A DNA stretch of 64,000 bases, filler included, from Porpidia crustulata (taxonomy: Eukaryota), in assembly GCA_964255105.1 (NCBI GenBank). It is 5 parts of 5 records of this genome, joined end to end, with 100 filler letters (N's around TTAATTAATTAA, not from the genome) between each part and the next. Parts side by side here need not be neighbours in the genome. Positions count along the whole stretch, not along the records: positions 1 to 12,759 come from CAXUWE010000489.1; 4 more parts are not named here. The stretch is one strand, 5' to 3'. Every line of letters begins with the position of its first letter. Positions within the stretch are counted from its first letter, which is position 1. The notes below the pieces were generated by a model, which was given only the letters and a program-made list of their open reading frames with translations, was not told the DNA's origin and made no database searches. This document shows positions 1-51,421 of the stretch, piece by piece. A program made the translations under genes and the position numbers.

Positions 1-3000
1 GGAAGATGGGGGGGGGGCTTACGGTTCCCATAAAGGCTGTGGGGACGACGATGGCGTTGGGGTTGGCCGGCGCGTCGATGCTGCGGATGCGGTTGCCCAT
101 TTCGCCGCGCGGGATCTCGCTGGTGACTTCGAGCCGGCTGCGGTCGCTGGCGGTGACGCCGTTGATGTTGCGGTTCAGGATCATCAGGTTGCCCTCGGCG
201 TCGCTTTCGAGGTACACGTCTTCGGCGATGTCGGCGACGGCGGTGCTCCATACTGTCTGATAATGGCGTGCGACCTCGTCGAGGGTGTCTGGGAGGCCGG
301 CGGTGCCGCGCTTGTATTCGATGACGGAGATGCTTTTCATGAGGTCGGCGATGGCGATGGTATTGCCTCTGACGGCGATGTCGATGGGGGCGGTGGAGGT
401 GCGGTAAGAGGCTTGCTTTTGTAGGGTCTTGTCCGTGAGGGAGTAGATCACCACCTGAACACAATGTTAGTTGAGGTTTCGAAATAGGCGGGCGGAATGG
501 GGACGTACGGTCTTGACCAGCGCTGCAACGATGTTCCCATCTACTACTCCTATGGCTCGACAAGCTCCTTTCAGCGTAAGTTCCGCAACCAGCCGAAGTT
601 TCCGTTCTTGACCGACTGCAAAGACGAGAATCCTCCCACGAATGCTTTCGTCCTTTTTGTCTACATCGTCGAGGTATGCAGTGCCAACAACGAATCTTTC
701 TACGAGAGAACCGGATTCCTCACGAAGATCTGCCCTACAGACACTCTCGACAAGCTCTTCTACTTTCAATTCGTATGTGTCAAGCTCTTTGAACAGGACC
801 TCATCCGCCAGCTTGAAATGACTTTGTACAATTTCGTTGCCATATCTCAGTGTTCGTCGAATCGTGCCCATTCCGAAAGCTTTGAGGTTGGGTGAGTACT
901 GCACCCTTCGAACGGTCTCGTGTACGGATAAAGTCTGCACGTGGGTGGTGCGCTCGGTATCAACCAGAGCAAGTCTGAGATCTTGGTCTGTAGAAATGGC
1001 TATTGCTTCCGGATACGCTTCGGAGTCGAAAGGACACACGCAGGACGCCTTTTCGGCGGTGATGGCAGAGTATATAATCCTCCCTTCCAGCCCGTATATT
1101 AAGCTTGGATGTTCGCACGTTGCAAAAACACTGAAGAGGCCATCACTTTTCGGTAGAGCCTTGAATTTAGCTTGTTCTGTGCCGAGTACCATGGCTTTCC
1201 TTGATGATAGGGTAGCATTGGTGGTATTGTAAGAGAATGTTATAACCTCTCCATTAGCCATTGCTATGAATAGAGTGGGTGGCTGATCTAAAAGAATCTG
1301 GGTGAGAAGTATGGAACGTGGTATAGTGATGTCGTCCTCGTTCATGGTGATGCTTCGAATAATTTCCATTGTGTCTATCTTGAACACTACGACTGCTGCG
1401 CTTTGCCAGAAACCAGCGATACATACATCAGTGAAAATCGTAGGCACATGAATACATGCGACTTGGCCCTCATCCGTGAAGTTCCTTCGTGCCTTGACCT
1501 GAAGATTCTCGGCGAGATCCAGAATGACGGCCTCAGAGCCTCCAATCGACAAGGCAAGCCTTTGGTCATTGGCTGATGCCGCTGTGATACTGAGCCCAGT
1601 AGGAGACGACCATTCCGATATCAACATCCCATTCTCCGGGTCGACGATGCGGGCTGACGATGGAGTCACTTGAAGTAGGTGATTGCTTGGAAGGTTGGAG
1701 GCAAAGAGAGTGCTTTCTGATGATGATAAGCCCTTATATTCGGCTACCTCTTCAACTTCTCCATCTGCGTCAAATCGAAATACTCTGGTTTCATCGACAA
1801 ACGAAGCAAGAAGCAGATCCATGTACTGAGACTCGCTAGTGGATCGAATTCCAAAGAGATCGATTATATGTTCCATTTCTCCCAAAAGCCCCTGCTCTTC
1901 TAAGCCAACTCCGCTTCGAACACTTCGAAGGCTACCGTCTTGGAACGCTCCAGAGCCAGTGACTACCCGTGCCTGTCCGGAAGAAAATTCATTTGTTTGT
2001 GATTCACCTGCTCGGTGCCCCATGTCCATGATGGTAAAGTCCAAAATGGGCGCAATGTTCGGGAGCGTTTGCACTACTTCAAACTCCTTTTCCAGTACCC
2101 TGATAACTTTTGAATCACCTTGGTGAGATCCAACGAAGACGTGGCCGTTATCCAGATATACCAGAACCGACGCTCGAGAAGTGTGGCCGATCAAATCGAG
2201 CTTCCAACCCACAACTTCATCATCTTCCCCTAGTAGGAGCATCAGGAAGTACAATTTCCCGTAATCATCACCTAAGAGCCAGCGTTGCGCATCAATTTGC
2301 TCCCAAGCCACAAAAAGGGATGCTTCCTCAAGGGGTTCTATTAAGGTGTGACCAGAAACCTCGTCGAGATAGGCAATCGATGTCTCTGCAAGAATGAGGA
2401 GGCCATCTGTAGTTGTAAGCGCACACTCGGGTGATTAAAATCGCTTCGTACATACAAGCTGGCGCTGGTACGGGTATCAAATGACTGGCCCCTAGTTCCA
2501 GATCATTACGAGCATCGAGGACTTCCTCAAGGCTTGCATCGCCTTGCTCCCCGCTGCCACCTGCAGAATAGTCTAGTATCCTAATGCTAAGACAAACCTT
2601 TCTAAGATTATCTTCATAGAGGAAAGCAAGCTTGGTTCTTCGCTTATCCTTGCCACCACGCCAATGTACAAAAGCCGAGGATCGCACGGAGAGGTCAGGA
2701 ATCCTAGTCGCGACGGGATCACCCAGAAATCCTGCTGGAGGGTTTCCTTTCTTCTTTCCTGGTTGCGATATCGGGATTACTGTAACAATCCCATCGTACA
2801 GTTGCAGGGCCAAGAATTGCTTCGAAGGATCGACCAAACACCGATCAAAAGTTTGCGAGTCCCTAGATGTCTTATCTGCTGCATCAGTATACCTGGTCTC
2901 CGTACGTAATTGACGCAGATTCTCGTCCCAAGACACAGTAAAGTACTTATACTGGTCGGTACCGATAAAAAGGTGCTCGGTCGGAGAGTTTGCGGGCTGC

Positions 3001-3255
3001 AACTTCTCGAGCATGAGGACCTTGCCGTAAATGGATCGGGCGTGAGATAACACGAGGCCATCAATAGTCTGACTGTATATTTCCAAGCGGTTGGCTTTCC
3101 TGTAAACAATAAATATTATGGATCTGATCTCTCGATCATGGAGGATCTTCGTGAACTCACGCTACAACCAAGCATTCGTCATCTGGTGTGAGCAATCTCA
3201 GCTTGATTGCATGCCGTATGCTGCTAGACCGATGTATGGGAGCCAAATAAGCCAT
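1..3255 (-). CDS. DDB1: DNA damage-binding protein 1 (DDB1, CUL4 adaptor), multi-exon, 3' end cut off by contig edge
   Basis: ATG at 3255 gives MAYLAPIHRSSSIRHAIKL. ORFs 2328..3086 and 467..2311 carry DDB1 motifs (YLDNGHVFVGSHQGDS, NIAPILDF, TGSGAFQDGSLRSVRSGVG, RFVVGTAY). Introns near 3100-3160, 2407-2456 and 455-507. The last visible exon has IAIADLMKSISVIEY and VARHYQTVWSTAV. Confidence 0.95.
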
Positions 3256-3800: not shown

Positions 3801-3891
3801 CACCTTGTTGAAGAAAAAAATGGAAATGGGTCTCGCATAATTTCGCCTGATTTATACCAAAGCCATTTCCATTTTTTTCTTCAACAAGGTG
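3801..3891. mobile_element. 91-bp MITE-like element with perfect 29-bp terminal inverted repeats
   Basis: CACCTTGTTGAAGAAAAAAATGGAAATGG at 3801-3829 is the exact reverse complement of 3863-3891. CGT flanks both sides (3798-3800, 3892-3894), a possible 3-bp target-site duplication. Confidence 0.7.
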
Positions 3892-4334: not shown

Positions 4335-4598
4335 CTATTCAGCCGCCAGAGGCTCAGCTGCATCGGCAACCCGCGGGTATGTCCCGTAGCTGGCGTACGA
4401 GCCATAAGAAGTTGGGGCTGGAGGTGGAGGCGGGTAGTTGTTGTACGTGCCGTAAGTGCCATACTGGCCATATGCTCCATAGTCGGCCGGGGCAGCCTCA
4501 GCTTCTCGTTTGTCGGTTCCAGTGGGAATGGGACTCGCAATGACCATTTGAGCCGAGGCGAATGCCAGTAGGGCGAGGAGGTTCTCAGTGATCTTCAT
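4335..4598 (-). CDS. Small secreted Kex2-processed Tyr-rich repeat peptide (87 aa); putative RiPP precursor
   Basis: MKITENLLALLAFASAQMVIA|SPIPTGTDKR-EAEAAP-ADYGAYGQYGTYGTYNNY-PPPPPAPTS-YGSYASYGTY-PR-VADAAEPLAAE*. It has a signal peptide, a KR site, X-A/X-P dipeptides and Tyr at every third residue, and lies divergent from a UstYa-like gene. Confidence 0.85.
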   Translation of the reverse strand: MKITENLLALLAFASAQMVIASPIPTGTDKREAEAAPADYGAYGQYGTYGTYNNYPPPPPAPTSYGSYASYGTYPRVADAAEPLAAE

Positions 4599-5615
4599 GA
4601 TGAGTATCGGGAAGTGAAGTAAGAATGGAGATTTCGAAGACGTAAGATAGACGCTTTCAATTTGTTGAAAGCTTCCAGCAGAGAAGAAGAAGAAGCCGAT
4701 CTTATAGAGAATGAAACGGGAGCTGGCGTTCTCACGGCTGCGGGGTATGACATACCGTCTCCTCTTGATGGCACATCCAATAAGTTTCAGGGAAGGCCTT
4801 AAACACTCAGGCTCCACGAGTCTTGCTGCCGAGTACGGACCCAACATGCTTCAAGATTATTGCAGGGTCGATGAGACAGCGCATGGGGCGATCGAGACAT
4901 CCTGGCTTTGAAGTATAAATGGCCAAATCCACGTTATAGAGGCATGCTGAGCGACTTGATCCTGACCTTGTGTTGTCAAGAAATATATTGATACGGATAC
5001 AAGCGTGCTACGCGCTCCCCTGGTGGTCCGACCTGGATGCGGTGCAGCTAGTTAGAAACGTTATATTCCAATTAGAGTGACGGATTAGCTAGCTGCCTAA
5101 AGTTAATCCATTGATTCTTATGCCGGAGAGAAGAATATCGCTAGCTCTATTAAGCTAGCCAACTTCTTGGTGCTTCTGAGAAGCAGCTGGGTACGTATAA
5201 GTAATCAATAATGGTTACCACTTAGTAACCAGCAGGTGCTGGGCCGAGAGCTTAAGGCACCCTCAAGTTATCATACTAAGCAAGGTAAGCAAGTACCCCG
5301 CTCTTCCTTCAGATGTGGGATGGCATGAGTGTATCGATGTTGCCCCGGGCAATCCGAGGATGTAAGGCATCTGGCTGAAGATGACTCTGCTTCTTGCATC
5401 GCCACCATGCATCTCTGTACCCGAAGATCGTCCCGTCCTGGTCACGAGAGGAGACAGGCAGCGATTGAATCGATTGAGCTACCAATGTGCTGGAGCCAAT
5501 CCCCAAACCATGTTCTTCGACATTGTTGCCTCATCTTTTCAATTTTCCCAAAATGCACTGGAATTACTAGTATCTACTCACCCTCCAAGTTGCCTGTTGA
5601 ACGCACTTTTCCACG

Positions 5616-6696
5616 ATGTTTGAATATCCTTGGAAGAAAAGCTTCAATTATAGTCATGTCTCACAGACAGGGGACTGCAAAGCATTCATCTCAGGATCAG
5701 ATAGCACAGAGACGCTAGATTCACCATCAAAGACCAGACCAACACGGTTCTACTTTTCTTTGCTCGTGACACTATTCCTGGCGATTACTTGTTTCCTTGG
5801 AGCATGGCTGGGCAGTCGCCGGGTCGCTGACTTGGCTTCGCTATGTACTGGACAGATTTCCCAATATTGTATGCCAAAGTCAATGATATTTATATCCAAT
5901 TGCTGATTCATATTTCAGCACCGTTTGTGAAGGACGTTGGCCTAAAATATGAGATCGTAGCTTTCAACGGCTCGTTGCTGAGAGAGAACGTATTCCGGCA
6001 GGATGCAGGGCCAGAGGTTGACGCAGCATGGACTTCCTTGGGCGTTGACTGTGAGCCCTCGCGATGACCGAATAGACCTCCTGGCTAATTATGCAATATT
6101 ACAGACAGAAGTGTGATCATACGATCTGATCAAGCGGAGAAGTCAGGCCTCTCTGAGATCCAAGTTCGATTGAATAATCGTTACGGGGGAGGTTATCCGG
6201 CCAATGTCGAAGGGCTACACCACTTACACTGCCTTGTAAGTTTCTTTGAGAACACCGCAACTCAATTTAACCTATCTACTCTTTAGAATCTTCTCCGGCA
6301 GTCGTTGTACTACAACTTCGATTACTACCATGAACGCGGCGAAGGCGCCTTCAAGAACACAGACGATATCCTGCGTTTCCACGTCTGTGAGTGCTTCACA
6401 TCTTTTCTTCCGCCGCTACCCCAATACATTGAGCAGGACGCTAACATGCTACAGCCCATTGTCTAGATATCATCCGCCAACAGCTGATGTGTACCGTGGA
6501 CGTTGGTATTCTCGGCCAAGTATGGTGGGACAAGGAACAGCCCAAAGCTTATCCTGATTTCAATACCAAGCACAAATGCAGGAATTTTAACGCGGTGCGG
6601 CAATGGGCAGAAGAGCATCAAGCGCCTGTAGATGTGCCGTTGGATTATCTGAGGCCGCCGATCAGTGCTGAAGCTGTTTATGGCAGTATACCTTGA
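5616..6696 (+). CDS. UstYa/DUF3328-family oxidase with N-terminal membrane anchor, 5 exons
   Basis: Splicing introns 5869-5918, 6051-6104, 6236-6286 and 6387-6454 gives one frame: TM segment FYFSLLVTLFLAITCFLGAWLG, then FNGSLLRENVFRQDAGPEVDAAWTSLG, ANVEGLHHLHCLNLLRQSLY, RFHVSHCLDIIRQQLMCTVDVG and DFNTKHKCRNFNAVRQWA. Two HxxHC motifs and the LMCxxD motif are typical of DUF3328. Confidence 0.93.
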
Positions 6697-7125
6697 TTGT
6701 CAAAGGTCCAACGCAAACAATTGGTTTATATCCTGTTGCGGGTGTGAGGGTAGTATGTAGAGTGCTCGAAAATGTGTAAATAATCCCAATGTTAGCTAAT
6801 ATTCTGAAACTATTGCCACATGCCACACTAAATAGCTCTAGCAATAATCTACCATACGCGCCATTGATGGACTTTGAAAGTGATTATTCTCGTTCACTGA
6901 ATGGCAGGGCCTTCTCCTCAATGGAAAGTGTATTGTGTAAGCGAGGAATCCCTCAATGCTCCTAGTCCAGGGATTGAGACATTCCAGGTATACATCACGA
7001 TGTCACAGGTCCATGATATATGCAGCCTTTTAGGTTCATGTCAACAGAGACTCTGCTCTACTTGACCCGTCTGAGGCACTGAGGTATCGCTGTATTCAAT
7101 ATTCTGATCCCGATTTCAGAATTTA

Positions 7126-7706: not shown

Positions 7707-8118
7707 CATTGGCATACGGAGACTTCGCCACCGCCTATGACGGATCCTTCTCGATCCTCTCATTTCGGTACTCCTCAAAAAAGGCCGCGAAAGTCTCCCT
7801 GTTCATGAATCCCATTACCTCATACCTCGTCCGCGCCACGCTTCCAGCTCCGTTGGAGTCTTCGAACAATGGCTGCATCTTGAATTGGCAATAGTGGCAG
7901 AGTGCCTCGGCCTGGTGAGTTGTAAGATCCTTCCCATCCTGGCGCACGACCAGTACGCTGCCGACATCATTCTGCCACTTCGGGAGCAGCGCCCAGCCCC
8001 ACTTTTCACTCTTGAGATCAGCATAGAGGTGCAGGAATGTCGCTGCTTGGTTTTCATACGGGTACGGATCCGTATTGCGGTCATCTTTTCAGGTTCGATC
8101 TGGGGGGTATTTCTGCAC
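7707..8118 (-). pseudogene. Degenerate fragment of an uncharacterised fungal protein gene with two in-frame stops
   Basis: One frame reads VQKYPPDRT*KDDRNTDPYPYENQAATFLHL...WGWALLPKWQNDVGSVLVVRQDGKDL...EALCHYCQ...EKDPS*AVAKSPYANE*. Stops are TGA (8089-8091) and TAG (7735-7737), each one transition from TGG. No clear 5' exon. Confidence 0.5.
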
Positions 8119-8677: not shown

Positions 8678-10075
8678 TTATGATACTGTTTTACTCTTCT
8701 CCTCGTCCCCTGAATGGGCGCCTTCTTCGTCATCAGTCCCCCGATCCGTCTCCCACTCAACCCCTTCCTCGTCGTCTTCCTCAGTCCCTTCCTCGCTGTC
8801 CTCCGAGTCCGTAGGATCATCGTTGTGACCTGGCATTGACATATGCCTAGGGTTAGAATCCCCAGGAATGATCCGAGGAGCACTCATAGCGTTCAGCCAC
8901 TCTTCGTGGGTCATGTCCGAGATGAGGTCGGGGGCTGTCTCGCCAGGTGCGATGGAGAGTTGCTCGTCGTATGTGTCGTATGCTTGCGGATCCTGTTATG
9001 TCTCAGTACGCGCGTTCCCAGAAAAGTCGCAAGCATCCGCTTACGTCTTGATCGATCCATGACTTTCGTTGCCAGGGCTCCTCGCGCATAGCGTTCAGAA
9101 GCTTACTAGTCTCGGTTTCGGTTTCTTTGCCATTTGCGTCTGCATCGTCGACTTCCGTGGATTTGACAGACATGTTTACTGCTTTGGCCTCGGGTTCCTC
9201 CTCGCCGTTCTCGGTAGCACGTTGTGCGCGGGCTGGTTTCTCGAAGTCGATGAGAGCATCAAGGTGGGAGAAATGTGGACGAAGTTGGACGATAGCATCG
9301 ACCTTGTTGAGGTACAAGTTCTCTACGAAAGTTGTAAGTGCCATACAACTGCTAGCTCCCTGAAATGAATATCTTGTGTCAATAACTCACTTCCTTTAAA
9401 AACTCCAATGTAATAATTCGGATCTTTGCCCTCTTTGAAAGGGATAATTTGTCCGCCTAGGGTGATCTTATTCATGACATGTCCCTTGTTGTTCGCGTCA
9501 TCGAAATTTTCCAGAAGAGATTCTTGCGTTGGCCCTTCTATCGACGGTTTTTGACTATCTTTTGCTGCAGAACGAGGCTTTGAGCCAATACCAAACCCTC
9601 CAGCCATGCCGTAAGATCCACCCTCTCTTAGAACACGGCTCTTCCGCATCGCCTCTCCGTAGATGATGCCCTTCTCCTTATTGAAATTATGGTGGACGTC
9701 CATAGGAATATCAACCTCCACGAGGCCACATTTGGGCTTGATACGAAATTCTAGAGGTTTCTGTCCAGTTCTGTTGGAATAAGGTTGGTCGGGATCTCGA
9801 TTTGGATATTGAAGGATCATGACCTTCATAGTAGGTGTATTTATGTACATATCGTACTCGGCAGCGACATCATTACTTTCCTTATCAATTTCCCCATGAT
9901 ATCGATGTGCGTTTTTGGTCAGGTCTAATAAACTCATTGGAAAGTCCTCCACGTCGTTGGCAGGGAGAGCTTGTAGCTGAGCCTGCACAGAGTCTTGCCT
10001 CTCATCGATAGGGGTATGTGTCCAATCTGGGGTGGGTAATGGAGGATGTGCCATGCTAGACTTCTCAGACGCCAT
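8678..10075 (-). CDS. RPC37: RNA polymerase III subunit Rpc37/RPC5 (Sin-like N domain), 3 exons
   Basis: Motifs LQYPNR, EFRIKPKCGLVEVDIP, ITLGGQI, NYYIGVFKG and VDAIVQLRPHFSHLDA. ORFs 9323..10075, 9003..9344 and 8678..8914 join through introns near 9390 and 9044. Acidic C-terminal tail. Confidence 0.85.
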
Positions 10076-10541
10076 TTCGGACGCTGGAAGAGAAGTCTGC
10101 CTAGCAGCACCCTTGGTACGTGCCTCTCTTTCCTCTCAGGAGCTTTTATTTATCTTTGCAGCTGAGACAGGCGATATTGGCTTGATCTCTCAAGCGATAT
10201 TTTATGTTCACGCCGCGCTGCCTCTCTTACTCCAGTACTAATATTGACGTCCTCGGCACCCTTGTCCTTCTAATAACGATGCATAGCTAAGTGGACTGAT
10301 CTTGAATTAGAGAATGTACATAGGGTACCATGGTAAGATTCACACCGGAAGGTCTGGCGGTAAGCAAGGTTGAAATGTGAAGTTGTTGATCTCGAAAGTG
10401 AGGTCAAATAATTAATTGTTCGCGTCGTTAACGGCAATTGCGTCATTCCCGCAACTTTAAATATAAGCGCTTCTCACACTCATTGTAGGGCTGAGATATA
10501 GACTGAGCTTCTCTTAACTATGGACCCTGGAGATCTTCACA

Positions 10542-12449
10542 ATGTCACTGCCCGGCCTTCAACTTTCTACCCCAGTGGAGGTAGGGGTCGTACCAAATAT
10601 TCATAATGTCAAGCCAGGTACTGAATGGAGATTCGAGGTCGCTTTTGGTACAAATGTAGAGTTGAAGGTAAGTTATCTATTGAATTTTGCAGTGAGAAGG
10701 GATGGCGCATTTTGATGCTTTCTCCCTCTCTTTGCATTTTTGCCCTATTCTTCTCGATTTTTTCTCTAATTTCTTATCCTCCTTCCTTCCACTTTTGCTC
10801 GTTCTTTCCATCCTCCTTCTCATTCTACTTCTTGTTTTTGTCCTTTTATCTTTCCCTTCTTCTTTTCCTTCTTTTCCTCGCCTGCAGTCCACTTTCTCTC
10901 TCTTCGTCTTCTTCCCCCTGTTCTTCTTCTTCCTCTCTTTCTCCCATTCGAATGACCCGACCTTGTAATAGTTCTTCCTTTCTTACGCTTATATACCTGC
11001 TTATTCACTTCTTTTCTGCCTACTTGATTCGAAGCACTCGATTTTGGTAGCTATGTCTGGACTCTACTCACAGTTGCTATTTTTACACAGCTTCTTTCCG
11101 GTAACGCAGAGCTTTTTGGCACAGAACTCGCCCAAAAACAAACCTATGTATTCACGGGGATCAAGGCAGCAATATTCACATGGCATGGTTGCCTCCTCGA
11201 GGTCTCAGGGGATGTCCAGGTCGAATACCTTGCTGAAGAGACACCTATGATCAGCTACGCAAACTTGCACTTTGCGCTGGAGAAAATAAGAGACCAGAAT
11301 TTACTGGATGAAAGAGATGGTCCCCGAGTGCTGGTCGTTGGACCGGAAAATGCAGGAAAGACTAGCTTAGTCAAGCTTCTCACTGCCTACGCTACGAGAT
11401 CTGGTCGACAACCTATTACTGTGAACCTTGATACCAAGGAAGGCATGTTAAGCGTTCCCGGAACTTTATCTTCAGCGGTCTTTTCCTCAATCATCGATGT
11501 GGAAGAAGGCTGGGGAAGCAGTCCGACCAACGGACCGAGCCAGGTCCCCGTAAAGCTACCATTAGTGTACTACTATGGACAAGCGAATCCGGATGATAAT
11601 GTACAGACATTCAAGCCTATGGTAACGAGGCTCGCGCTCTCTGTGATGAGTAAGTTACAAGAGGACACAGAGGTAAAGGAAGCAGGGTGTATCGTGGATA
11701 CGCCGGGTGTTATTAGTCAAGGAAAGGGAGGGTATGAGATTATTCAGCATATTGTTTCCGAATTCTCAAGTAAGCTCCAGGCAGTATTGTATCCACCTGG
11801 ACTCGTTGGTGACCTTTTCTTAGTCAATATAGTGATCATCCTCGGCTCTGAACGCCTCTACAGCGACATGGCGCGTCGCTTCAAGGAACAAAACACTGGT
11901 AGCGGCGAGAAGATATCTGTTATTAAACTGGACAAGTCTGGCGGCTGCGTCGACCGAGACGAAGAGTATCAACGACAATATCGTCAAGCGCAAGTCCGGG
12001 AATACTTCTTTGGCGACAGCAGAAGCACTCTGAGCCCTCATACTCAACAGGTCGACTTCAACCAACTGACTATCTACAAGATCGCCGAATGTAAGTTCAT
12101 CAACTCCCAACTTCACCCCCTGTACAGCACTAATGAAACCACCCCAGCCTCCGACCTCCTCAACTCACTACTCCCCGGCGGTGAAGCCGACGATGCTTCA
12201 TCCGCGATTTTCGATCAGGTACAGCCATCGCCGCAAATGCAGAATTCAATCCTTGCCATCGTGCAGGCAGACCCCAACGACACACAGGAAAATATCCGCG
12301 ACGCTAGTGTAATTGGGTTCATTTACGTCGCCGAAGTCGACGAGAAGAGGAAGAAAGTGAAGGTCTTGGCGCCTTTGAGCGGGAGGCTGCCGCACAAGGC
12401 CATGATATGGGGGACGTGGCCGGAAGGCGTTGGGGACTTGGTTGGATGA
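10542..12449 (+). CDS. CLP1: mRNA cleavage and polyadenylation factor / polynucleotide kinase Clp1
   Basis: Exon 1 MSLPGLQL...EWRFEVAFG. Long intron ~10668-11090. P-loop GPENAGKTSL, plus VKLPLVYYYG, KLDKSGGCVDRD and GFIYVAEVDEKRKKVKVLAP. Further introns at 11770-11823 and 12091-12147. Confidence 0.95.
10715..11020 (+). repeat. Pyrimidine-rich (CT/CTT) low-complexity tract inside CLP1 intron 1
   Basis: About 300 bp dominated by T and C on the + strand; it produces the F/S/L-rich and K/R/E-rich spurious ORFs. Confidence 0.8.
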
Positions 12450-12759: not shown

Positions 12760-12859
12760 NNNNNNNNNNNNNNNNNNNNNNNNNNNNNNNNNNNNNNNNN
12801 NNNTTAATTAATTAANNNNNNNNNNNNNNNNNNNNNNNNNNNNNNNNNNNNNNNNNNNN
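12760..12859. other. Assembly spacer (N-run, TTAATTAATTAA, N-run)
   Basis: 100-bp spacer carrying a six-frame stop linker. Confidence 0.99.
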
Positions 12860-13230: not shown

Positions 13231-15658
13231 TCAATCCACCTTCCCGTATGGTCCTCCGCCGTTCAAAATCCCCTCCTTTCCATCCAACTGAAAGAAACCT
13301 CCGGTCCCACCCTTCGTCTTCCGTATGTATCCTTTACCCCACATTGCGCTACCAATTACTATCCCAATCAAGAGACCGAAAGAAACCCAAGGGTGGCTAG
13401 TCGCTGCGCCACGTGTATGGAAGAAAACCTGCTGGAAGGCGCCAGTGCGGGATTTTGGAGAGAGTTTGGGGGGGGTGGAGATCACTTTGGGGCGGGTCTC
13501 GAGGATAGAGGTGCGGGATGGGACGATGAAAGCACCCGATTCGGTAATGTCCCAATAACGGCGATTCTATGATAGTCAGCAGGTGTGAGGGAGGATTTAA
13601 AGAAGAGAAGCAGACTCACGTCTTCGTCGTTAATTATGACTCTTTCACCGTCGTTCTGGACATTGATACCGTACGTTGATCGAATCCAGCGCTCCCAAAA
13701 GATACCATCTACCCATGCAAAACCTACTTGCTTCCTGTCATCCTCACTAATATTGATTTCGATACTCTTTGCTGCTCTTATAGCTCTCTGATCGCCTCGA
13801 TCCTCTGCTTCTTCGAGACGCAATTGCTTCGCATCTCTCAATTCTTGGCGTTCCAACTGGAAGGCATGGGTTTGCTTCTCCATCCAGTCAAGTGCCGCAT
13901 TCTTGATCTCACGCTTATCTAAGACAAATTCATCTGCCCTTTCGCGAGATAACATCCCGAGGACTACAAATTTTCCACTCATGATCTCGCGGGAATTAGA
14001 GGCTGTGAGCTCTGGTACAATCGGTAGCCAGACGGACTTCATCCAATTCAGTACCTGTCTGAAGTCTCGCATATCTTTTGGTGCTAAAGCGTTGTAATAG
14101 CTTGGTCTTCCGTCCCTTGAGACTAACAGTCGGGGCCATGTCGATATTTTGAATCTATCGGCTAAAACAGAGCTATCGGTCTTGACCAGCTTCGCGTGGC
14201 CAATTAAACTCAGTGTCAATCGTTCTAGAGCCTCAAAGTCTTCGCTTGTGGTAGCGTGATCGTAGAAATAAAGAAAGATGACCTCTTCAGTCTCTTCCAT
14301 TACTTTGAAAGCTGGTGCGTCCACGTATGTCACACCGCCGCCAATGTCCAAAGCTTTCTTTGCGTAGCTGACAAGATCTCCAAGTCCTCGCAAGCCATCA
14401 TACTCGACGCGCTCGCCACCTCGGAAGAAATGGATTGTTGGATAGCCTTTGACTCGGACATCTTTGCAAAGTCGTACCTCCACATCGCAATTAACCTCGC
14501 CGACGTTGAGGTTACCTTGCAACTCCTTCGACATTTGAAGCCAGCCTGGGGCAAGAGCTTGACAGTGGTGGCACCATGGTGCATAGAATTTGACAAACCA
14601 GGGATCTTGAGTGTTGGTAACTAGCTTCTGGAAGCTTTCTTGAGAAAGAGCGATGGAGGTCCCCAAGGCATTTGCTATTACGGTCGGCTTTGTCGGCCTC
14701 GAAACCTTTGTAGCCTTCAATTTAGATTTCCCCGTTGAAGCCTCTTCTGCTGCAGAAGCCGTGCCTGTACCTGGAACAGCTTTCCCGTCCTTTTTGTCGG
14801 CCTTGTCTCCAGTCACCACGGGATGGGTCTCGGAATCGGTAGAGTTCTCGCCAGGCGCCGGTAGAGTCAGACCATTCTTTGATCTCGACCCAGGTCGAAT
14901 GGATTCTAAAATCTCCTCAACAAATGCACTCAAGCCTGCCATATCGCGTTCCCTCTTGTTCGGCGTATCATGTTTTACCTCGAATTTCTTCACGAGTTTG
15001 GAATCTTTGTACAATTGAAATGTCGGCCACGACGTAACCTGCCGATCATTGCACGCATCGCCATACCGGATGCAGTCGATGGATGCAAAGTTAAAGTCGT
15101 AGTATCGATGGAATGAGTTGGCCTGTGACTGAGCTGTAGACGGTTTTCCGGATGCCAAAGGCTTCGAGGTCTACAATTGAGTCAGATATACGTGACTTTT
15201 GGCCTGCGGTCTCAATTGTACCTACATAATAAAATTCGTACAGGGTTTGCCACGCTGGGGCAATGTCCTGACAATGATGACAGTAAGGTGAGAAATGTTT
15301 CACAAACCTGCTCAGAAATATATCAGTGTTACACTTCATTCTCGACTTCCCCTTCAAGATTGAGGGTTGCCATCGCAAAATCATACCAATAGCCGTTCTT
15401 TATTTCCTCTTCAAACTTCTCGCCATTAATTTCCTTCATTGGCGGAACCTCTATATTATTGAAAAGGGTCGAGTCGCTAGAAACGGCTTCGCTATTTGTA
15501 GCGCCAGCCGCAGCTCCAGCCTCAACAGGTGCGGGCTTGATCTCCGACAGAACATCTTCTACAGTGTTGAGTTGGTGCTGCGTGTCTCCAGCAGTCGTAG
15601 CTTGTACTGAAGATAGGAGGAGAAGGGAAATGACGGCTCGTGGGATGAGGAAATGCAT
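13231..15658 (-). CDS. EPS1: ER membrane protein disulfide isomerase-like, multi-thioredoxin-domain (Eps1-like)
   Basis: Signal peptide MHFLIPRAVISLLLLSSVQA; two CxxC sites (FSPYCHHC, FYAPWCHHC); further thioredoxin-like folds; C-terminal TM segment and di-lysine-like end GKVD. Introns near 15308-15387, 15171-15227 and 13567-13619. Confidence 0.85.
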
Positions 15659-25618: not shown

Positions 25619-25718
25619 NNNNNNNNNNNNNNNNNNNNNNNNNNNNNNNNNNNNNNNNNNNNTTAATTAATTAANNNNNNNNNNNNNNNNNNNNNNNNNN
25701 NNNNNNNNNNNNNNNNNN
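25619..25718. other. Assembly spacer
   Basis: 100-bp N spacer with TTAATTAATTAA. Confidence 0.99.
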
Positions 25719-38471: not shown

Positions 38472-38571
38472 NNNNNNNNNNNNNNNNNNNNNNNNNNNNN
38501 NNNNNNNNNNNNNNNTTAATTAATTAANNNNNNNNNNNNNNNNNNNNNNNNNNNNNNNNNNNNNNNNNNNN
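38472..38571. other. Assembly spacer
   Basis: 100-bp N spacer with TTAATTAATTAA. Confidence 0.99.
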
Positions 38572-41432: not shown

Positions 41433-43476
41433 TTAATTTACACTATCGACAGGGTAATGTGATGCTCCTCTAATTTGCCGTCTTGGTTTGATGCTACGTT
41501 CGCTATAAGATTATGTCAGCTGAAAGTTGCTTTAGTGTCAAGGACATACTAACTCTTTAGAGTAATAAGTCTCGACAGGCGAGTAGGAGCTGGTACTATG
41601 AGTAGACGAAGCCGTGAAGGCTTTTTTGGAGTGATAAGGTTGTTCGCCTGTATTCACAGTACCGTTGTACATTGCGCTGGAGACAATTAGACTGGGTGGT
41701 TTCCAGTATATAATGAAGAAGGGTCTTACCCATGACCATCAGTGGGAATCTGGGTCACTGCACCGGTCAAATCCAGGGGATTATCAACGTTACCACCAGC
41801 ATTGCCAGCAATTGCCATACCATATGCTCGACAGTTCTCAAGATGGTTTTCAGGAATCTTTAGATCCTTAAGGTGATCTGGAGCTTCAATCATAGTTGCC
41901 ACCAAGCCAGATGAGACGTGCCATTCGATGTGGCAATGGAATGACCAGACTCCTGGATTGCTCGCTTGAAATCGAATTACAGCGTAACCATTTGGGTTCA
42001 CCATAATGGTGTCCCTTCGGACCGGGATGCTGGATAAGTTGGCGGCGTAAGTACCGAAAGCTCCAGCCTGGGGAGGAGATCTCTCAATGACTTGGAAGTT
42101 ATGTCCGTGAAGGTGCCATGGATGCAGATTATTATGATCTGTATTGACGTTGTTGATAACAATCTCGACTACTTCGTTGTACTTCAGGACAAAAGGGTTG
42201 ACTTGACCATACACTATGGGATTGGAGGAATATTCATTACCGACAGTGAGAGCCGTGTAGAGGGATGGGACCTTCTGCATCAGATATGTGACATCATTTA
42301 TAATCGCCCTAGAAACATCAGTCATAGGTCTTCCTTTGAAAATTATAGGACTTACCTGTTGACTCCACTAAGATTTGCAAAACCAGTGTTTACGGTGATG
42401 TGATGATCGACTTGACTCAGGAGGGGCTGATGGTCGTATGGGACAAGATACATTTCGTCAAAGAAATCAAAACCCTGTATATCGACAGGAGGTGGAAGGG
42501 GTTTCTTGTCGTCGTAAACAAGCCATGCCGTGATATTGGGATTGTATCCTGGGGGCGGGATACCTTTTGGTGGGAACATCATGTTGATATCCAAAGTGGC
42601 AAAAATGGCGAAGTTCTTGTCGGTGCTATTCTTGGTGTCGATAAGAAAACTCCATCGCTGTCCCGTAGCAATGCGGATATTTTGAGATCCGATGTACCTT
42701 GGCTCGACGTACACTCCATCAATTTCGACAGCTGTGAACGGATGCCCATCAAAGTAAATGGCGTGACCGGCGAAATTACCAATATTGACGATGTGAACCA
42801 AATAAGTTTTTCCAGGCTTGACGGGAATCGAGACGTTTTGGCCGTCGTTGATGAGACCACTGTCCGCATCGGGTTCTAGGCCACCCCTGACGTTTTCGTC
42901 TGTAGTCGACTCATAGTAATTAAGGAGGTTTGGCATCTGCTCATGGTACCAATCCGAGAGTGTCATCGTGATCTCCTCATCGAATTTGCCAGCATACGGC
43001 GCCTTGCTATCGTGAACAACGATTGGACCGCGTAGGCCATCTCCCATTTGGCCCATATTATGCGAATGATACCAGTAAGTGCCGGGTTGGTTTATCTATA
43101 CCCACGTTAGAATGCTCCTCGATGGCAGGATACAGCCATTGCCTACCTCAAAATCATACTTGAAGCGGCCACCTGGGGGAATAGGGCACTGCCCGACTCC
43201 AGAAGCTCCATCCATTGTAGAACTGCCTGTTTGGAAGATTCCATGCCAATGGAGAGTAGTGGACTGGTTTCCCAAAGCATTATGGACATTGACAACAACC
43301 CTGTCCCCCATATCGACATCTATCTGGGGGCATGGCCATTGCCCGTTGATACCAATAACAGGCCTAGCAAACCCATCAGGGCTCGCCGTAACCCATGTGA
43401 TGTCCCAGTTGTAGGTTACAGTCTTGGAAAAAGATATACTGGCAAAGCTAAAAAGGAGAAGAACAAGCACATACAT
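41433..43476 (-). CDS. Secreted multicopper oxidase, Fet3/ferroxidase-like, multi-exon (3' exons tentative)
   Basis: Signal peptide; four Cu-binding motifs TTLHWHG, TYWYHSH, HPWHLHGH and WSFHCHIEWHVSSGL. ORFs 43096..43476, 42352..43056 and 41726..42325, plus short downstream exons. Confidence 0.92.
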
Positions 43477-46448
43477 CGTGGCCGGGTTGTACAGTGTCGA
43501 GATACGGTTGAGGCAACCTTTCGAAGGAGGGATAAGACAGTATATACATGAACGAACAAGCTAATTTGTAACGACTTGATGTATACGGACATCCCCGAGC
43601 GATGAATCGGCATGATGGCGATATTCCAAGGTCACAGCCGAACCAGACACCGCCTTGAGGAGAGAGATTCATCTGGACTGCTGAAATTCAAGGAGAAAGT
43701 CAAGGAGGAAAGTCTACGGTCTGCACGATTCTGCACTTAGACCAAGACCCATTCTCAAGGTGGCAATAAGCGATGTGGAAGCAGCTTGTCAATACGACCG
43801 AAGTATGCATAATTTGAACGAGCATGAACCTCGGATGACCTGTGCACGAGGTCGGCCCTGTAGCAAATGAACGTAAGAATATGAATTAGGTTAAAGTGAG
43901 CATAGAGCTGCAGTAGGATGGAGATGCGGTACGGCTATTGCTTGGTGGATGTGGTTTATGGGACTGCTTTGATTCCGAGTCGCAGCAACGACCCATTGCA
44001 TGTAAGACTCCCCAGAAACGGAGTATTCGTAAGCATTCCTTGAGAAAGCGGAATATGTATGTATGGATCTTTGATCGTAGCTATACGGTAAGACTTGAAG
44101 AGATGACAGTTGTTGGCGGTGTGAACTATCATTCTCCTCACGAATACATACCTATCGTACTACCTTTCGTCTTCATGTAAGAAGTCGACTTGCGGTGAGC
44201 GCCACCATAGACACGCGATTTCGGTTATAGTTTTGGGTTTCTCCAGCGCTAGCCAGGTCGGGTAAAGCACAAGCCACGCTGTCTGGACTTTGTACAACGT
44301 CAACCCCAATCAAGGAAGGTTTTGCCATCGTGATGAGCTTTATCAGATCCACCAGACCTGTTGTTCATCTTTCGTTCAATAGTAGCCTGTATCAAATAAA
44401 TGACCATATGAATTTCAATCTGTCGAATTCTTCAGTAGTTGGCATAACTGGCCGAGACCTGCATTACGGCGTCGCATATACCTGATTACTGGATTCTACT
44501 AGATCAGCCAGTCATTGAAGTCATCAGCTCGATCTAGGGAACAATGAAGCGCGTAGAAATCAACGATCTCCGGAAAGAGTTCTAGCTAGAATGTCATCAC
44601 CTTAAGCTTCAAGTCATCGTACTTTCTCTGAGGGTAAAAACAACCACATTAATGACTCGAATATGCCTCATTTCAGCAACTTATGACCTCGGTATAAATC
44701 CTGGTCTTGGCCTTCACCCCATGAAACAAACCAGTCGGTGGAGTGTGACTTGTCCAGTTCGTCGGACGTCCTCGCCTATGATCTTTGTCAAGCGGAGAAA
44801 TAGATCAAGCTGATTGCAAGTCGATGATGCCTACTAATACATCCTGAAGAACCCATACCATCAAATGTTATTGCTTACGCCTCCATTGACTTCGCTGATA
44901 GCTTTCCGATTGATCCAGAAGTAACGCGCTGATATTCCGGATTTTGTGGGGTTGTTAACTCATTATAATCTAGCTTCAGATAGCCTGCCACCAGATTTGG
45001 TTCAGCCTCATTGAGAACAGTGATGGGTATCGGTACCTCATCATGAATCTCGGAACAGATACTAGATAGCTGGAACCTGACGCACTTTGAAGCCGTGCGT
45101 AGACCCGGCCTTAAGGTAGCTTGTCCAACTTTCACGTGAGTTCGGGCGCGAATACCTACACTATGATAGCTGCATATAGAACCCGAGTGTATGGCGAAAA
45201 CACTCGGTTGGATTGTCCTCGCTCGAAAGACAGAAGAGCCTTGTGCTGGTAATCCCGTAGTAATTTGCTTTGCGATTCATGCACAATAAAGACAATCTGA
45301 CCCATATCAATCTTGTGAACAAGCTTAGCTTATTAGTTTTAAGCAAAACATTACTTAATAATCTTCATAGATATAAGTTCTTGGAACGTTTACCTTCATA
45401 ATGTGGAAGTGGACCCTGAATTCTTTACGGGGCTCGGGTGAGTTGGTCAGCCATCCGGATCATCTCCTCGGTTTCAACGGACGTGACAGGTTAGAAATCT
45501 CAATTACTCACGGAAGCAGTAGAAATAGCTTGGCTACCTGACGAGAAGAAGCACGGAGCGGTATCGCGCATTACCGAAACCCGAAATGATTGCCATAAAA
45601 CAACGCTTGAGAAGCAAACAATTCCAACGGGTAGTAGACGATGTGTCTACTATTGCAAGGTAGATTGCATAGCCATAAGGTAGTCATAGAAATATAAATA
45701 TGCGCGTGTGAATTAGTCATGATTATGACGAAAACCAAATATAAATTTGAAGTGAGTGTAATGAAAATCAGTATAGATGAGATATCAATAGCAAGCGTTT
45801 CCAGGACTGAAGATTCAGTGATAGGACTGGTGATGAGGATATGGAAAATAGCTGGTAATAAAGAATCATGATACCTTTGATATTTCAACTAAATTGGGAT
45901 CTCATCATATTGACTAAATTGAGTCGTACAATTCTCTGTAGCCAAGGAGCAAAGGGTCGCCAACTCTCGTTATTACACACCGTAAAAACGATCAGCTCGT
46001 ATGTCAGCACAGTAAATACATGATCAAGATCGTCGGCCTTTTTTTTCTTGGTTGCATACATTGTCGAAATTTAAGGAGTAAGGATGTGCGGAACGGACTT
46101 GAGTGCAGATCTGGAACGCTTCCGCGATGACGCCACATACGAAGATTTGAAATGCGAGGCGCCTTCCCGGTGAGGCTGAGGTTAGTCTATCAAATCTGGT
46201 GCCCCCCTAAACAGGAGCTTCTTCACATTGTTGACGGTCTGAGGAGTTAAGGGAATCGTTCAAGGAGTGGATATTTTAATGATTAATCAAATGTCACGCT
46301 CATTACACCGTCACCTCGCGTCAACCGGTGGAATCGGTTGTTGAGTCTCAGAGCTCCATCTTGCATCCACAGATAAACAGGGACTCCAGTGTCAGCGCGT
46401 TGCATTGCAAGCTGATAGAGGTAAACAAAGGCTTTTTACAACACCACA

Positions 46449-51321: not shown

Positions 51322-51421
51322 NNNNNNNNNNNNNNNNNNNNNNNNNNNNNNNNNNNNNNNNNNNNTTAATTAATTAANNNNNNNNNNNNNNNNNNNNNNN
51401 NNNNNNNNNNNNNNNNNNNNN
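51322..51421. other. Assembly spacer
   Basis: 100-bp N spacer with TTAATTAATTAA. Confidence 0.99.

Follow-up and report, generated by a model that had tools for sequence, protein, structure and literature searches.

In a 64,000-nucleotide stretch of Porpidia crustulata DNA (the window), an 87-aa tyrosine-rich precursor and a UstYa/DUF3328 oxidase are encoded head-to-head, their divergent start codons 1017 bp apart. Each belongs to a recognizable protein family, and the pairing recurs in other genomic contexts. On balance we favor reading the two genes, which are transcribed divergently, as a peptide-maturation unit of the dikaritin/asperipin type and, judging by its sequence, one that probably makes a modified peptide. 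What sets the pair apart is a long Tyr-ladder core of period 3, deep conservation, and a housekeeping neighborhood.

The locus and its neighbors

The pair and the features around it are as follows.

467-3161, minus strand: DDB1, a neighbor of the pair
4335..4598, minus strand: precursor gene, intronless, 87 codons plus stop (ORF translation, homologues)
4599..5615, no strand: divergent intergenic region, 1017 bp, common to both genes; presumed bidirectional promoter
4702-4713, within the intergenic region: 12-mer TTATAGAGAATG, containing TATAA
5616..6696, plus strand: UstYa/DUF3328 gene, 285 aa (gene model, PF11807 per exon, full-length blastp)
7735-8088, minus strand: unassigned 117-aa ORF between UstYa and RPC37
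9323-10135, minus strand: RPC5/RPC37, a neighbor of the pair

Four sequencing runs compared with the stretch all yielded DNA contigs, and those of the probable source run span it entirely. Comparison of the intergenic region with those of two related loci, L003 and L006, found a single positionally kept 12-mer (E 0.05), whose end lies 103 nt ahead of the precursor ATG in the window and in L003. As the sole sizeable common block, with that E value, it constitutes weak evidence.

Pfam scans of window ORFs (at least 130 aa beyond 15 kb; selected ORFs before 15 kb) returned no tyrosinase, no methyltransferase, no transporter and no second UstYa; an S41 peptidase and a regulator were likewise not found in the ORFs scanned over the 64 kb. 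The scans bear out the sequence-only reading, which had seen no tailoring genes adjacent to the pair. A multicopper oxidase gene lies ~35 kb away. Selected ORFs of the L003 flanks also gave no Pfam match to dikaritin accessory genes.

The precursor and its family

Translation of the small gene yields MKITENLLALLAFASAQMVIASPIPTGTDKREAEAAPADYGAYGQYGTYGTYNNYPPPPPAPTSYGSYASYGTYPRVADAAEPLAAE (87 aa) and confirms the ORF as originally described, with its hydrophobic N-terminus, KR, EA-EA-AP and Tyr repeats. Its segments, in the order of translation, are:

4536..4598, minus strand: predicted signal peptide, aa 1-21, MKITENLLALLAFASAQMVIA (hydropathy and inspection by eye; likely cleavage before SPIP)
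4488..4535, minus strand: pro-region SPIPTGTD, KR (aa 30-31) and EA-EA-AP (aa 32-37) (sequence reading)
4371..4487, minus strand: core, aa 38-76, ADYG...GTYPR, 39 aa, ending in PR (Tyr positions, alignment A1)
4335..4370, minus strand: acidic C-terminal tail VADAAEPLAAE and stop codon (sequence reading)

The best 11-residue Kyte-Doolittle window of the hydrophobic N-terminus is LLAFASAQMVI, and an M-K-x...A-x-P-[VI]-P layout around the predicted signal peptide is kept in family alignments. Relatives, too, repeatedly show [KR]R with a Glu/Ala/Pro spacer after it; cleavage of the precursor by Kex2 and Ste13-type enzymes would be consistent with these motifs. The C-terminal tail of relatives is either acidic, like that of the window protein, or conserved and amphipathic.

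The core has one ladder of six Tyr and a second of four, each with spacing i to i+3, and a PPPPPAPTS hinge between them. Its ten Tyr occupy positions 40, 43, 46, 49, 52, 55, 65, 68, 71 and 74, so that eight of the nine successive steps are of exactly 3 residues; only 1 of 200,000 shuffles of a 45-residue stretch matched this periodicity. The periodicity is kept at the level of protein and is not a DNA microsatellite, since TRF returned 0 rows for tandem repeats under the precursor and the Tyr codons of the ladder are mixed (6 TAC, 4 TAT). Residues D39, Y46, G47, Y49, Y52, Y55, P56, P57, Y68, Y71, Y74 and R76 are invariant in alignment A1.

A Pfam search of the precursor returned no family, and the sequence-only reading had recognized no dikaritin match for its core. 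The precursor is no orphan, though: full-length homologues with the same layout of predicted signal peptide, KR and core were found at 97%, 58% and 51% identity, and the family comprises 66 representatives at E<=1e-3 (86 proteins in a further search). By homology, the precursor thus belongs with Kex2-type precursors that are widespread in ascomycetes, Sordariomycete relatives included. In a set of 113 family proteins that includes many fragments, 105 have at least 4 Y..Y steps, and Y[KR]R occurs at least once in 71 and twice or more in 15.

The precursor had also been said to lack multiple KR-delimited cores. This holds for the window copy, which has a single core between KR and PR in place of the several of a typical dikaritin precursor, but not for its relatives: locus L001 encodes one KR-ended unit, L002-L005 two each, P0180 of Xylographa parallela three that are nearly identical, and L006 at least four of ~41 aa. 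Since relatives carry 2, 3 or at least 4 near-identical KR-delimited cores, the single-core form is, on this comparison, one end of a range of copy number and not a difference of class.

The structural model available for one family member (P0122, from the Atlas) is disordered, with pLDDT 0.39 and scores all <0.8. In Venturia, the relative g14174 is classed as not up-regulated in planta; within the supplements covered, the identifier occurs in the effector-candidate list only. The peptide motif is absent from the supplements of Umemura 2020 (PMC7329392; these give accessions, no sequences) and Le Marquer 2019 (PMC6339444), and literature searches on DUF3328, on tyrosine-rich Kex2-type fungal secreted proteins and, for the years since 2023, on AprY/asperipin returned no description of the precursor family.

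The UstYa/DUF3328 oxidase

The oxidase gene has four introns, all GT..AG and of 50-68 nt.

5616-5868, 5919-6050, 6105-6235, 6287-6386 and 6455-6696, plus strand: the five exons (gene model)
5754..5810, plus strand: predicted single membrane anchor, aa 47-65, FSLLVTLFLAITCFLGAWL (highest 19-residue hydropathy window)
6218..6232, plus strand: first HxxHC motif, HHLHC, aa 167-171; H167, H170 and C171 invariant in 26 orthologues
6380..6462, plus strand: second HxxHC motif, HVSHC, aa 204-208; H204, H207 and C208 invariant in 26 orthologues

Exons 2-5 match PF11807 colinearly, at profile positions 56-89, 95-137, 138-165 and 168-220, with 22, 30.9, 17 and 78.9 bits (two of the exons, taken singly, pass the Pfam cut-off of 25 bits); exon 1 matched no Pfam family. 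Intron 4 (6387-6454) interrupts the HVSHC motif, and Cys218 and Cys247 are conserved across the 26 orthologues. These matches and motifs sustain the original assignment, and by them the protein is a true UstYa/DUF3328 protein. By analogy with CctR, it would have a short N-terminal tail, a single membrane helix and a lumenal C-terminal domain; an AlphaFold2 model of orthologue P0010, of low confidence (mean pLDDT 61), places a helix at 45-70. Enzymes of this family are described as dimeric, binuclear-copper, O2-dependent and lumen-facing in the available text of PMC12435403. Of the disulfide-linked dimer expected for the family, what the sequence shows is the conserved Cys218 and Cys247.

The spliced protein aligns end to end with orthologues of 285-287 aa at 63-66% identity (blastp). 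Its orthologue group (~285 aa) is strongly conserved, at 50-65% identity over four or more fungal classes (50-66% by full-length blastp to orthologues); identity to the Blumeria, Podosphaera, Aspergillus and Sclerotinia orthologues is 50-59%. There were no Sordariomycetes among 112 UstYa matches in a search that scored only 123 candidates. Since both the conservation and the spread of this group far exceed what is usual for RiPP tailoring enzymes, the oxidase may, as far as its sequence goes, act on a general substrate unrelated to the window peptide. DUF3328 enzymes also work in NRPS and polyketide pathways (PMC12048977).

Conservation of the pairing

A metagenome search for relatives gave at least 20 loci, and among the matches listed 6 were judged true. 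The other fourteen (L007-L020) were rejected as low-complexity chance matches, mostly to bacterial-looking ORFs. In 5 of the 6 true loci among the matches listed, the same UstYa orthologue lies divergently, 1.0-1.8 kb upstream of the precursor; the remaining true locus, L002, breaks off 656 nt upstream and stands outside the linkage count. Precursor homologues are thus linked head-to-head to DUF3328 genes at 5/5 testable loci among the matches listed, beyond which unlinked relatives may exist. The sequence-only reading had named a lack of such linkage elsewhere among the outcomes that would refute its proposal; the outcome favors a functional two-gene RiPP-like unit of asperipin/dikaritin kind.

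When window ORFs of at least 70 aa were compared by tblastn with the 20 loci listed, matches came from 4338-6699 only, with 0 elsewhere: the two-gene pair is all that the window and the related loci listed have in common. The flanks of L003, for example, hold an NLR-like NACHT/ankyrin gene and others.

The linked loci among the matches listed represent two lineages beyond that of the window, one of them Helotiales-like; the oxidase at one linked locus is 78% identical to that of Hyaloscypha (Helotiales), against 63% to those of Xylographa/Ptychographa. In sequencing run X2, from a relative of the window, a single contig of 11,369 nt holds the two genes at ~94% identity; run X5 contains fragments of the oxidase only. 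Since L001-L005 are one species and X2 is a close relative of the window, independent support comes from just three lineages: that of the window, that of L001-L005, and L006.

P0005 and P0118 are the only oxidase and precursor entries on contigs of matching size (283,637), and belong to a species of the L003 type; no species whose locus tags reveal gene order is common to the oxidase and precursor lists. In Acephala macrosclerotiorum, P0150 (a weak family member) and the oxidase P0036 are not adjacent, since their contigs differ (848,192 vs 455,426). A binding prediction for the lumenal domain of a UstYa orthologue, in two copies, with a P0180 fragment made up of its last unit and tail scored 0.02 against a mark of 0.34, and speaks neither for nor against binding.

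Comparison with known systems

The asperipin-2a system of Aspergillus flavus (aprA, aprY, aprT, aprR) resembles the window pair: in both, a KR-delimited, Tyr-rich precursor, secreted by prediction in the case of the window, stands beside just one enzyme of the UstYa family, and few genes make up the set. One asperipin-2a link spans Y-T-G-Y, i to i+3, and the spacing of the window ladder is identical. On the other hand, no transporter or reductase gene adjoins the window pair, and in place of the many copies of a 6-aa core, FYYTGY, there is one core of 39 aa with 10 Tyr. The window oxidase comes from an orthologue group whose conservation is deep. The window core is also unrelated to YAIG and YVIP of ustiloxin and phomopsin. 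To our knowledge, the cores of the remaining known dikaritins are likewise much shorter than 39 aa. According to the available parts of PMC6514808, the asperipin-2a cluster has four genes with one DUF3328 enzyme, the core is of 6 residues, and the modification consists of ethers from Tyr side chain to beta-carbon.

Ustiloxin and phomopsin share with the window pair a precursor with signal peptide (predicted in the window protein) and Kex2 sites and DUF3328 oxidase(s) of HxxHC...HxxHC type; their cores are of 4 residues and the cross-linked residue is Tyr (PMC7329392, in the text available). They differ in having a tyrosinase, methyltransferase, S41 peptidase, regulator and second DUF3328 gene, none of which was found among the scanned window ORFs. 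An older definition of dikaritins (Ding et al., as quoted in the available part of PMC12048977) counts a tyrosinase, methyltransferase, transporter or peptidase among the clustered genes, and the window locus lacks these accessory genes among the scanned ORFs. A DUF3328 gene clustered with the precursor, another dikaritin hallmark, is present, 1017 bp away and divergent.

Kex2-processed repeat proteins (KEPs; Le Marquer 2019, PMC6339444; Umemura 2020, PMC7329392) offer a wider frame. Pairs of a KEP and a DUF3328 gene form an established class; as given in the accessible text of PMC7329392, a DUF3328 gene lies near 22% of KEPs, most commonly right beside them, and it is these KEPs that are Tyr-enriched. 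The relatives of the window precursor, with predicted signal peptide and KR-separated units, fit the definition. The window protein, having one unit where KEPs have repeated units between dibasic sites, would be missed by repeat-based KEP pipelines for that reason. Among Umemura's 838 KEP types, which are listed without sequences, G-5/P-1 or G-6, both rich in Y and D, are candidate homes for the family.

Yeast alpha-factor shows the same arrangement of KR and then Glu-Ala or x-Pro dipeptides directly ahead of the mature peptide. Its precursor is processed by Kex2, Ste13 and Kex1. In contrast to the window pair, for which modification is proposed, alpha-factor is described, in the accessible part of PMC7329392, as free of side-chain modification and its genes as free of DUF3328 companions. 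CctR and other characterized DUF3328 enzymes share with the window oxidase an N-terminal tail, one membrane helix, a later conserved Cys, and two helices each with HxxHC; the substrate of CctR is an NRPS-made cyclic peptide, which it hydroxylates (PMC12435403, available text).

Proposed maturation pathway and alternative explanations

From sequence comparison we infer expression of the pair, each processing step, action of the enzyme on the window peptide, and the type of modification. The signal peptide would take the 87-aa product into the ER, and in the late secretory pathway the precursor would meet the lumen-facing domain of its membrane-anchored UstYa/DUF3328 neighbor. The enzyme would then oxidize the Tyr-ladder core, most likely by forming side-chain cross-links that involve Tyr three apart, as AprY does on FYYTGY, or alternatively by hydroxylation. 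Kex2 would cleave behind KR31 and again behind the PR that ends the core, where relatives have KR or RR, and a Ste13-type dipeptidyl aminopeptidase would trim EA-EA-AP, so that the secreted product would be of ~38 residues, its two Tyr ladders made rigid on either side of a polyproline hinge. The proposal that the pair makes a modified peptide gains a precursor family and linkage elsewhere, and loses its picture of a single-core class, relatives being multi-core.

The small ORF might owe its open frame to chance, in DNA of low complexity beside a real UstYa gene, and its shortness and lack of a Pfam match would be in keeping with that; in view of its full-length homologues (97%, 58%, 51%) and 66 representatives, of a Tyr periodicity matched in 1 of 200,000 shuffles over DNA that has no tandem repeat, and of the TATA-containing 12-mer at equal distance from the ATG in L003, this is very improbable. 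A more substantial competitor, which we rate as somewhat unlikely, is that the peptide is linear and unmodified, or is a Tyr/Gly/Pro-rich secreted or wall protein, that UstYa has another substrate, and that the divergent promoter alone keeps the pair together. The housekeeping neighborhood with no further biosynthetic gene, the disordered P0122 model (which fits a structural or low-complexity secreted protein), and a range of oxidase orthologues exceeding the taxa with a demonstrated precursor all agree with this, as does the estimate, in the accessible text of PMC7329392, that 78% of 7878 KEPs lack a nearby DUF3328 gene and are thought linear. What argues against it is that all five testable loci listed have the precursor head-to-head with the same orthologue while their other neighbors are all different, even where the linked oxidase is nearest to Helotiales (78% Hyaloscypha vs 63% Xylographa/Ptychographa). 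The conservation of ladder Tyr amid variable intervening residues, moreover, fits a substrate of Tyr-directed chemistry, and the same source, as far as its text is available, reports DUF3328 counts that are highest directly beside KEP genes.

The length of the core (39 aa, 10 Tyr and a polyproline hinge, where known dikaritin cores are much shorter) also raises the thought that the oxidase links peptides to one another or to wall polymers via Tyr, generating insoluble extracellular material; the wide conservation of both genes hints at a general cell-biological role of this kind. We consider such polymerization distinctly unlikely: KR-ended units and Glu/Ala/Pro spacers indicate release of discrete peptides, and the characterized DUF3328 enzymes, as described in the available portions of PMC12435403 and PMC6514808, modify a single small peptide internally or take a small cyclic peptide as substrate. 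The two-gene peptide-maturation unit stays the reading that we prefer; points against it are the small number of linked lineages, the breadth of the oxidase group and its apparent absence from Sordariomycetes among the candidates scored, the DUF3328 enzymes of NRPS and polyketide pathways, the non-adjacent Acephala genes, the Venturia listing, and a window precursor with one core that ends in PR in place of KR.

Significance

Few fungal UstYa-dependent peptides have been characterized, and their cores are all far shorter, of 4 to 6 residues in the available text of PMC7329392 and PMC6514808. The pair offers a clean minimal test case, with one enzyme and one candidate substrate of unusual design, carrying ten Tyr at period 3; its small size puts direct heterologous expression within reach, and the recent in-vitro copper chemistry of DUF3328 enzymes (PMC12435403, available text) could be brought to bear on it. 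A 2025 survey of lichen fungi found UstYa-like genes with no recognizable repeated precursor (PMC12048977), and the precursor family supplies candidate precursors for such genes.

By sequence comparison, the conservation of the two partners seems to extend across several ascomycete classes, which is atypical of secondary-metabolite genes and thereby suggests a function of general importance. A farther-reaching proposal, which we put forward tentatively and regard as unlikely, is that the pair is an ancient two-gene module across Pezizomycotina in which a dedicated, strongly conserved copper UstYa links consecutive Tyr, i to i+3, of a secreted peptide of ~40 residues into two rigid ladders of cyclophane rings with a polyproline hinge between them. 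If that were true, the product would be much larger and more regular than any known dikaritin, its conservation and housekeeping neighborhood would speak for a general developmental, signaling or surface role, in place of that of a lineage-specific toxin, and the window protein would be the first precursor for a dikaritin-like gene in lichen-forming fungi.

Arrangement and surroundings of the two genes

The start codons of the precursor and oxidase genes lie head to head, 1017 bp apart. Translation, splicing and alignment confirm what the sequence-only reading had described, an 87-residue Tyr-ladder precursor divergent from a gene with HHLHC and HVSHC motifs.

Features of the window (genes without another stated basis are from Pfam scans)
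467-3161, minus strand: DDB1
4335-4598, minus strand: precursor ORF, 87 residues, from translation
Precursor, start of the product: hydrophobic N-terminus, MKITENLLALLAFASAQMVIA
Precursor, next: short pro-piece closed by KR at residues 30-31, then EA-EA-AP
Precursor, after EA-EA-AP: core, ADYGAYGQYGTYGTYNNYPPPPPAPTSYGSYASYGTYPR, with an acidic tail behind it
5616-6696, plus strand: oxidase gene, four GT..AG introns of 50-68 nt, spliced product of 285 aa
Oxidase, residues 167-171 and 204-208: HxxHC motifs HHLHC and HVSHC
7735-8088, minus strand: open frame of 117 aa, flanked by the UstYa gene and RPC37
9323-10135, minus strand: RPC5/RPC37
11028-12449, plus strand: Clp1
13482-15170, minus strand: thioredoxin/PDI-like gene
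41729-43560, minus strand: multicopper oxidase of laccase or ferroxidase type, three domains, several exons
Farther genes: NDUFA5, dihydroorotate dehydrogenase, U-box/TPR protein, ELMO, mitochondrial carrier, F-box/WD40, EB1, WDR3/Utp12, a nuclease

The pair lies in a housekeeping neighborhood. Among the window ORFs scanned against Pfam, none is a tyrosinase, methyltransferase, transporter, cluster regulator or second UstYa, upholding the earlier claim that DDB1 and RPC37 are the neighbors and that tailoring genes do not adjoin. The multicopper oxidase, ~35 kb from the pair, is too distant to be called clustered. No Pfam family matches the 117-aa frame, and related loci lack a counterpart of it. 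(Two incidental features may be recorded. An inverted repeat at 3801-3891, 40 nt and 90% complementary with 11 nt separating its arms, lies past the 3' end of the precursor gene, in the DNA separating it from DDB1, and could represent a small hairpin or a structure resembling a terminator. Paired N-runs, 44 N each, at 12760-12859, 25619-25718, 38472-38571 and 51322-51421, spaced ~12.86 kb, look more like deliberate masking than assembly gaps.)

The ten Tyr residues of the precursor (positions 40, 43, 46, 49, 52 and 55, then 65, 68, 71 and 74) fall into two ladders, each advancing by exactly three residues, with a proline hinge between them. Eight such steps were reached in one of 200,000 shuffles of the precursor's Tyr stretch. 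Tandem Repeats Finder detected no DNA repeat under the precursor, and codons for Tyr, Gly and Pro are mixed; the periodicity is therefore kept at the level of protein.

The oxidase and its orthologs

Exons 2-5 of the oxidase gene, scanned one by one, match PF11807 (UstYa) colinearly at 22, 30.9, 17 and 78.9 bits, which bears out the assignment to the UstYa/DUF3328 family. Orthologs of 285-287 aa align with the spliced product from end to end (63-66% identity to Ptychographa and Xylographa), and this validates the gene model. A single hydrophobic helix spans residues 47-65. With the last exon as query, 112 of 123 candidates scored were matched at E<=1e-10; all 112 contain PF11807 and most are 270-290 aa long. 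Their sources are Lecanoromycetes, Leotiomycetes, Dothideomycetes, Eurotiomycetes and Geoglossum. Blumeria and Podosphaera, both powdery mildews, are among them, and even these share 50-59% full-length identity with the window's protein. Both HxxHC motifs, Cys218 and Cys247 are invariant across 26 orthologs. By these sequence criteria the orthologous group of the oxidase is a deeply conserved one.

DUF3328 enzymes are described, in PMC12435403, as membrane-anchored, lumen-facing, disulfide-linked dimers that need O2 and electrons and whose HxxHC motifs form a binuclear copper site; the same paper recounts the in vitro characterization, by others, of the cyclase AprY. An AlphaFold2 model of ortholog P0010, of low confidence (mean pLDDT 61), predicts a long helix over residues 45-70 and places each HxxHC motif on a helix of its own, a layout that, within the limits of such a model, agrees with what PMC12435403 says of CctR.

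Certain database entries are probably mis-joined neighbors or chimeric calls: P0103 and P0053, in which a UstYa ortholog is fused with a protein named as a 2OG-dioxygenase (419 aa, from Aspergillus awamori) or with a HET domain (584 aa, from Chaetothyriales), and P0167 (539 aa), which has a Tyr-ladder unit with tail in its final ~50 residues.

A family of Tyr-ladder precursors

A word-indexed search with the precursor retrieved four relatives (97%, 58%, 51% and, partially, 77% identity), the named one being from Xylographa trunciseda. With exhaustive HMMER search, 66 cluster representatives passed E<=1e-3 and 11 of these also passed E<=1e-10; a profile built from 27 members matched 86 proteins. 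Named relatives come from Xylographa spp., Endocarpon, Exophiala, Geoglossum, Glarea, Mollisiaceae, Pseudogymnoascus, Acephala, Colletotrichum, Apiospora, Purpureocillium, Thyridium, Venturia and Ascochyta, giving the family a spread over six or more classes of Pezizomycotina. Members have one plan in common: a signal peptide is followed by a short pro-piece, in many cases closed by [KR]R, then by a Glu/Ala/Pro-rich spacer and a unit, [DG]YGxYGxYG...PPPP...YGxYxxYG[ST]Y, terminated by KR, RR or PR.

The union of these searches is a set of 113 proteins, many of them fragments or mis-called ORFs. At least four Y..Y steps are present in 105; Y[KR]R occurs at least once in 71, at least twice in 15 and three times in 4. 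Three KR-ended units are present in P0180 of Xylographa parallela, and P0117, P0120 and P0193 likewise have three. Because the unit is repeated in many relatives, the family can be assigned, on sequence, to the Kex2-processed repeat proteins (KEPs). The precursor had been thought to stand apart in lacking repeated cores: the window copy is indeed a one-unit form, but many relatives repeat KR-ended units, and the precursor is no orphan. Its unit ends in PR where relatives may have KR, a replacement ahead of an acidic spacer that is found also in P0141 and P0154.

A conserved amphipathic tail of ~10 residues, A-[VIL]-D-[WF]-[VI]-K-x-[LIV]-[WF]-x, follows the last KR in 24 of the 113 members; the window precursor has its acidic tail instead. 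The amphipathic tail could serve in recognition or sorting, or be released as a second peptide. (Its carriers include P0121, P0129, P0131, P0180, P0183, P0190 and P0191; internal KR is frequent.)

Linkage in other loci

Scanning metagenome contigs with the precursor alignment gave at least 20 loci. Among the matches listed, six (L001-L006) encode true relatives; the other 14 (L007-L020) were rejected as low-complexity matches within unrelated, mostly bacterial-looking ORFs. When three UstYa orthologs were used in tblastn, exactly five of the 20 listed loci matched: L001, L003, L004, L005 and L006. Linkage of precursor homologs to DUF3328 genes elsewhere, named as its test by the sequence-only reading, thus holds in all five loci that could be scored among the matches listed. 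(L002, whose contig reaches only 656 nt upstream of its precursor, is left out of this count.)

In L003-L005 the oxidase occupies 8969 down to 7895, with the precursor start at 10001; the genes are divergent and 1031 bp apart, nearly the 1017 bp of the window, and the layout of L001 is identical. Precursors of L001-L005 are 57-59% identical to the window's. In L006 the oxidase (~3675 down to 2732; 78% identity to a Hyaloscypha ortholog versus 63% to Xylographa/Ptychographa) is divergent from a precursor starting at 5435, ~1.8 kb away. A close relative of the window organism also has both genes on one contig of a sequencing run. Since L001-L005 are one species sampled five times and the sequencing-run carrier is close to the window organism, independent support comes from only three lineages: the window's, the L001-L005 species and the Helotiales-like L006.

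As a synteny control, stop-to-stop ORFs of at least 70 aa from the whole 64 kb were compared with the 20 listed loci. Matches came only from 4338-6699; the other window genes gave none. The flanking genes of L003 are of other kinds, one NLR-like with NACHT/ankyrin and one with an MJ1316 domain. Precursor and oxidase travel as a unit, and all surroundings differ. The intergenic DNA of the window and L003 has only one block in common, a TATA-containing 12-mer ending 103 nt ahead of the precursor ATG in both.

Unit number also varies within a species: L002-L005 have two units (L003, 10001-10429), L001 has one (4529-4765), and the one-unit database form P0118 looks, from its sequence, as though units 1 and 2 had recombined. 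Such variation points to unequal crossing-over and to polymorphism in copy number. The L006 precursor gene (5435-6292) has at least four units of ~41 aa up to the contig end, each split by an intron at the same position (49, 49, 49 and 69 nt); the unit was therefore duplicated along with its intron.

Proposed mechanism and alternatives

The balance tips slightly toward precursor and oxidase constituting a minimal RiPP unit. The precursor would move into the secretory pathway, where the neighboring copper enzyme would oxidize the Tyr ladder; Kex2 would cleave at KR31 and at the terminal PR, a Ste13-type enzyme would trim off EA-EA-AP, and a peptide of ~38 residues would be exported as the secreted product. 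All of this chemistry is inferred. The oxidase might alternatively hydroxylate the peptide, as CctR does, or couple peptides to one another.

Several considerations weigh against a RiPP unit. Independent lineages are few, and the unusually wide conservation of the oxidase could mean a general substrate; DUF3328 enzymes serve non-ribosomal pathways too (PMC12048977). In Acephala a weak precursor-family member and the oxidase ortholog are on different contigs. No Sordariomycete oxidase is found among the 112 matches from 123 candidates, though Sordariomycete precursors exist. The original interpretation as a two-gene RiPP system is, in sum, partly supported: it holds up on linkage and is revised as to the uniqueness of the precursor.

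Relation to known systems

The closest precedent for the pair is asperipin-2a, one of whose ether links spans Y-x-G-Y. Its cluster, as set out in PMC6514808, has four genes, one of them for a DUF3328 enzyme that makes ethers from Tyr side chains to beta-carbons in FYYTGY. KEP genes adjoining DUF3328 genes are an established class: according to Umemura (PMC7329392), a DUF3328 gene lies within 15 genes of 1758 of 7878 KEPs, most often directly adjacent, and these KEPs are Tyr-enriched. The Tyr-ladder family may be among the 838 KEP types of that study, perhaps the Y/D-rich G-5/P-1 or G-6. A 2025 survey of lichen RiPPs reported no repeated precursor in lichen UstYa loci (PMC12048977), and searches of open-access PMC papers and bioRxiv turned up nothing describing the YGxYGx Tyr-ladder family or the window oxidase's orthologous group. 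The pair of the window belongs to the known KEP and DUF3328 class as an additional member; what is unusual in it is the long Tyr core of period three, the restriction to two genes, the housekeeping neighborhood and the deep conservation.
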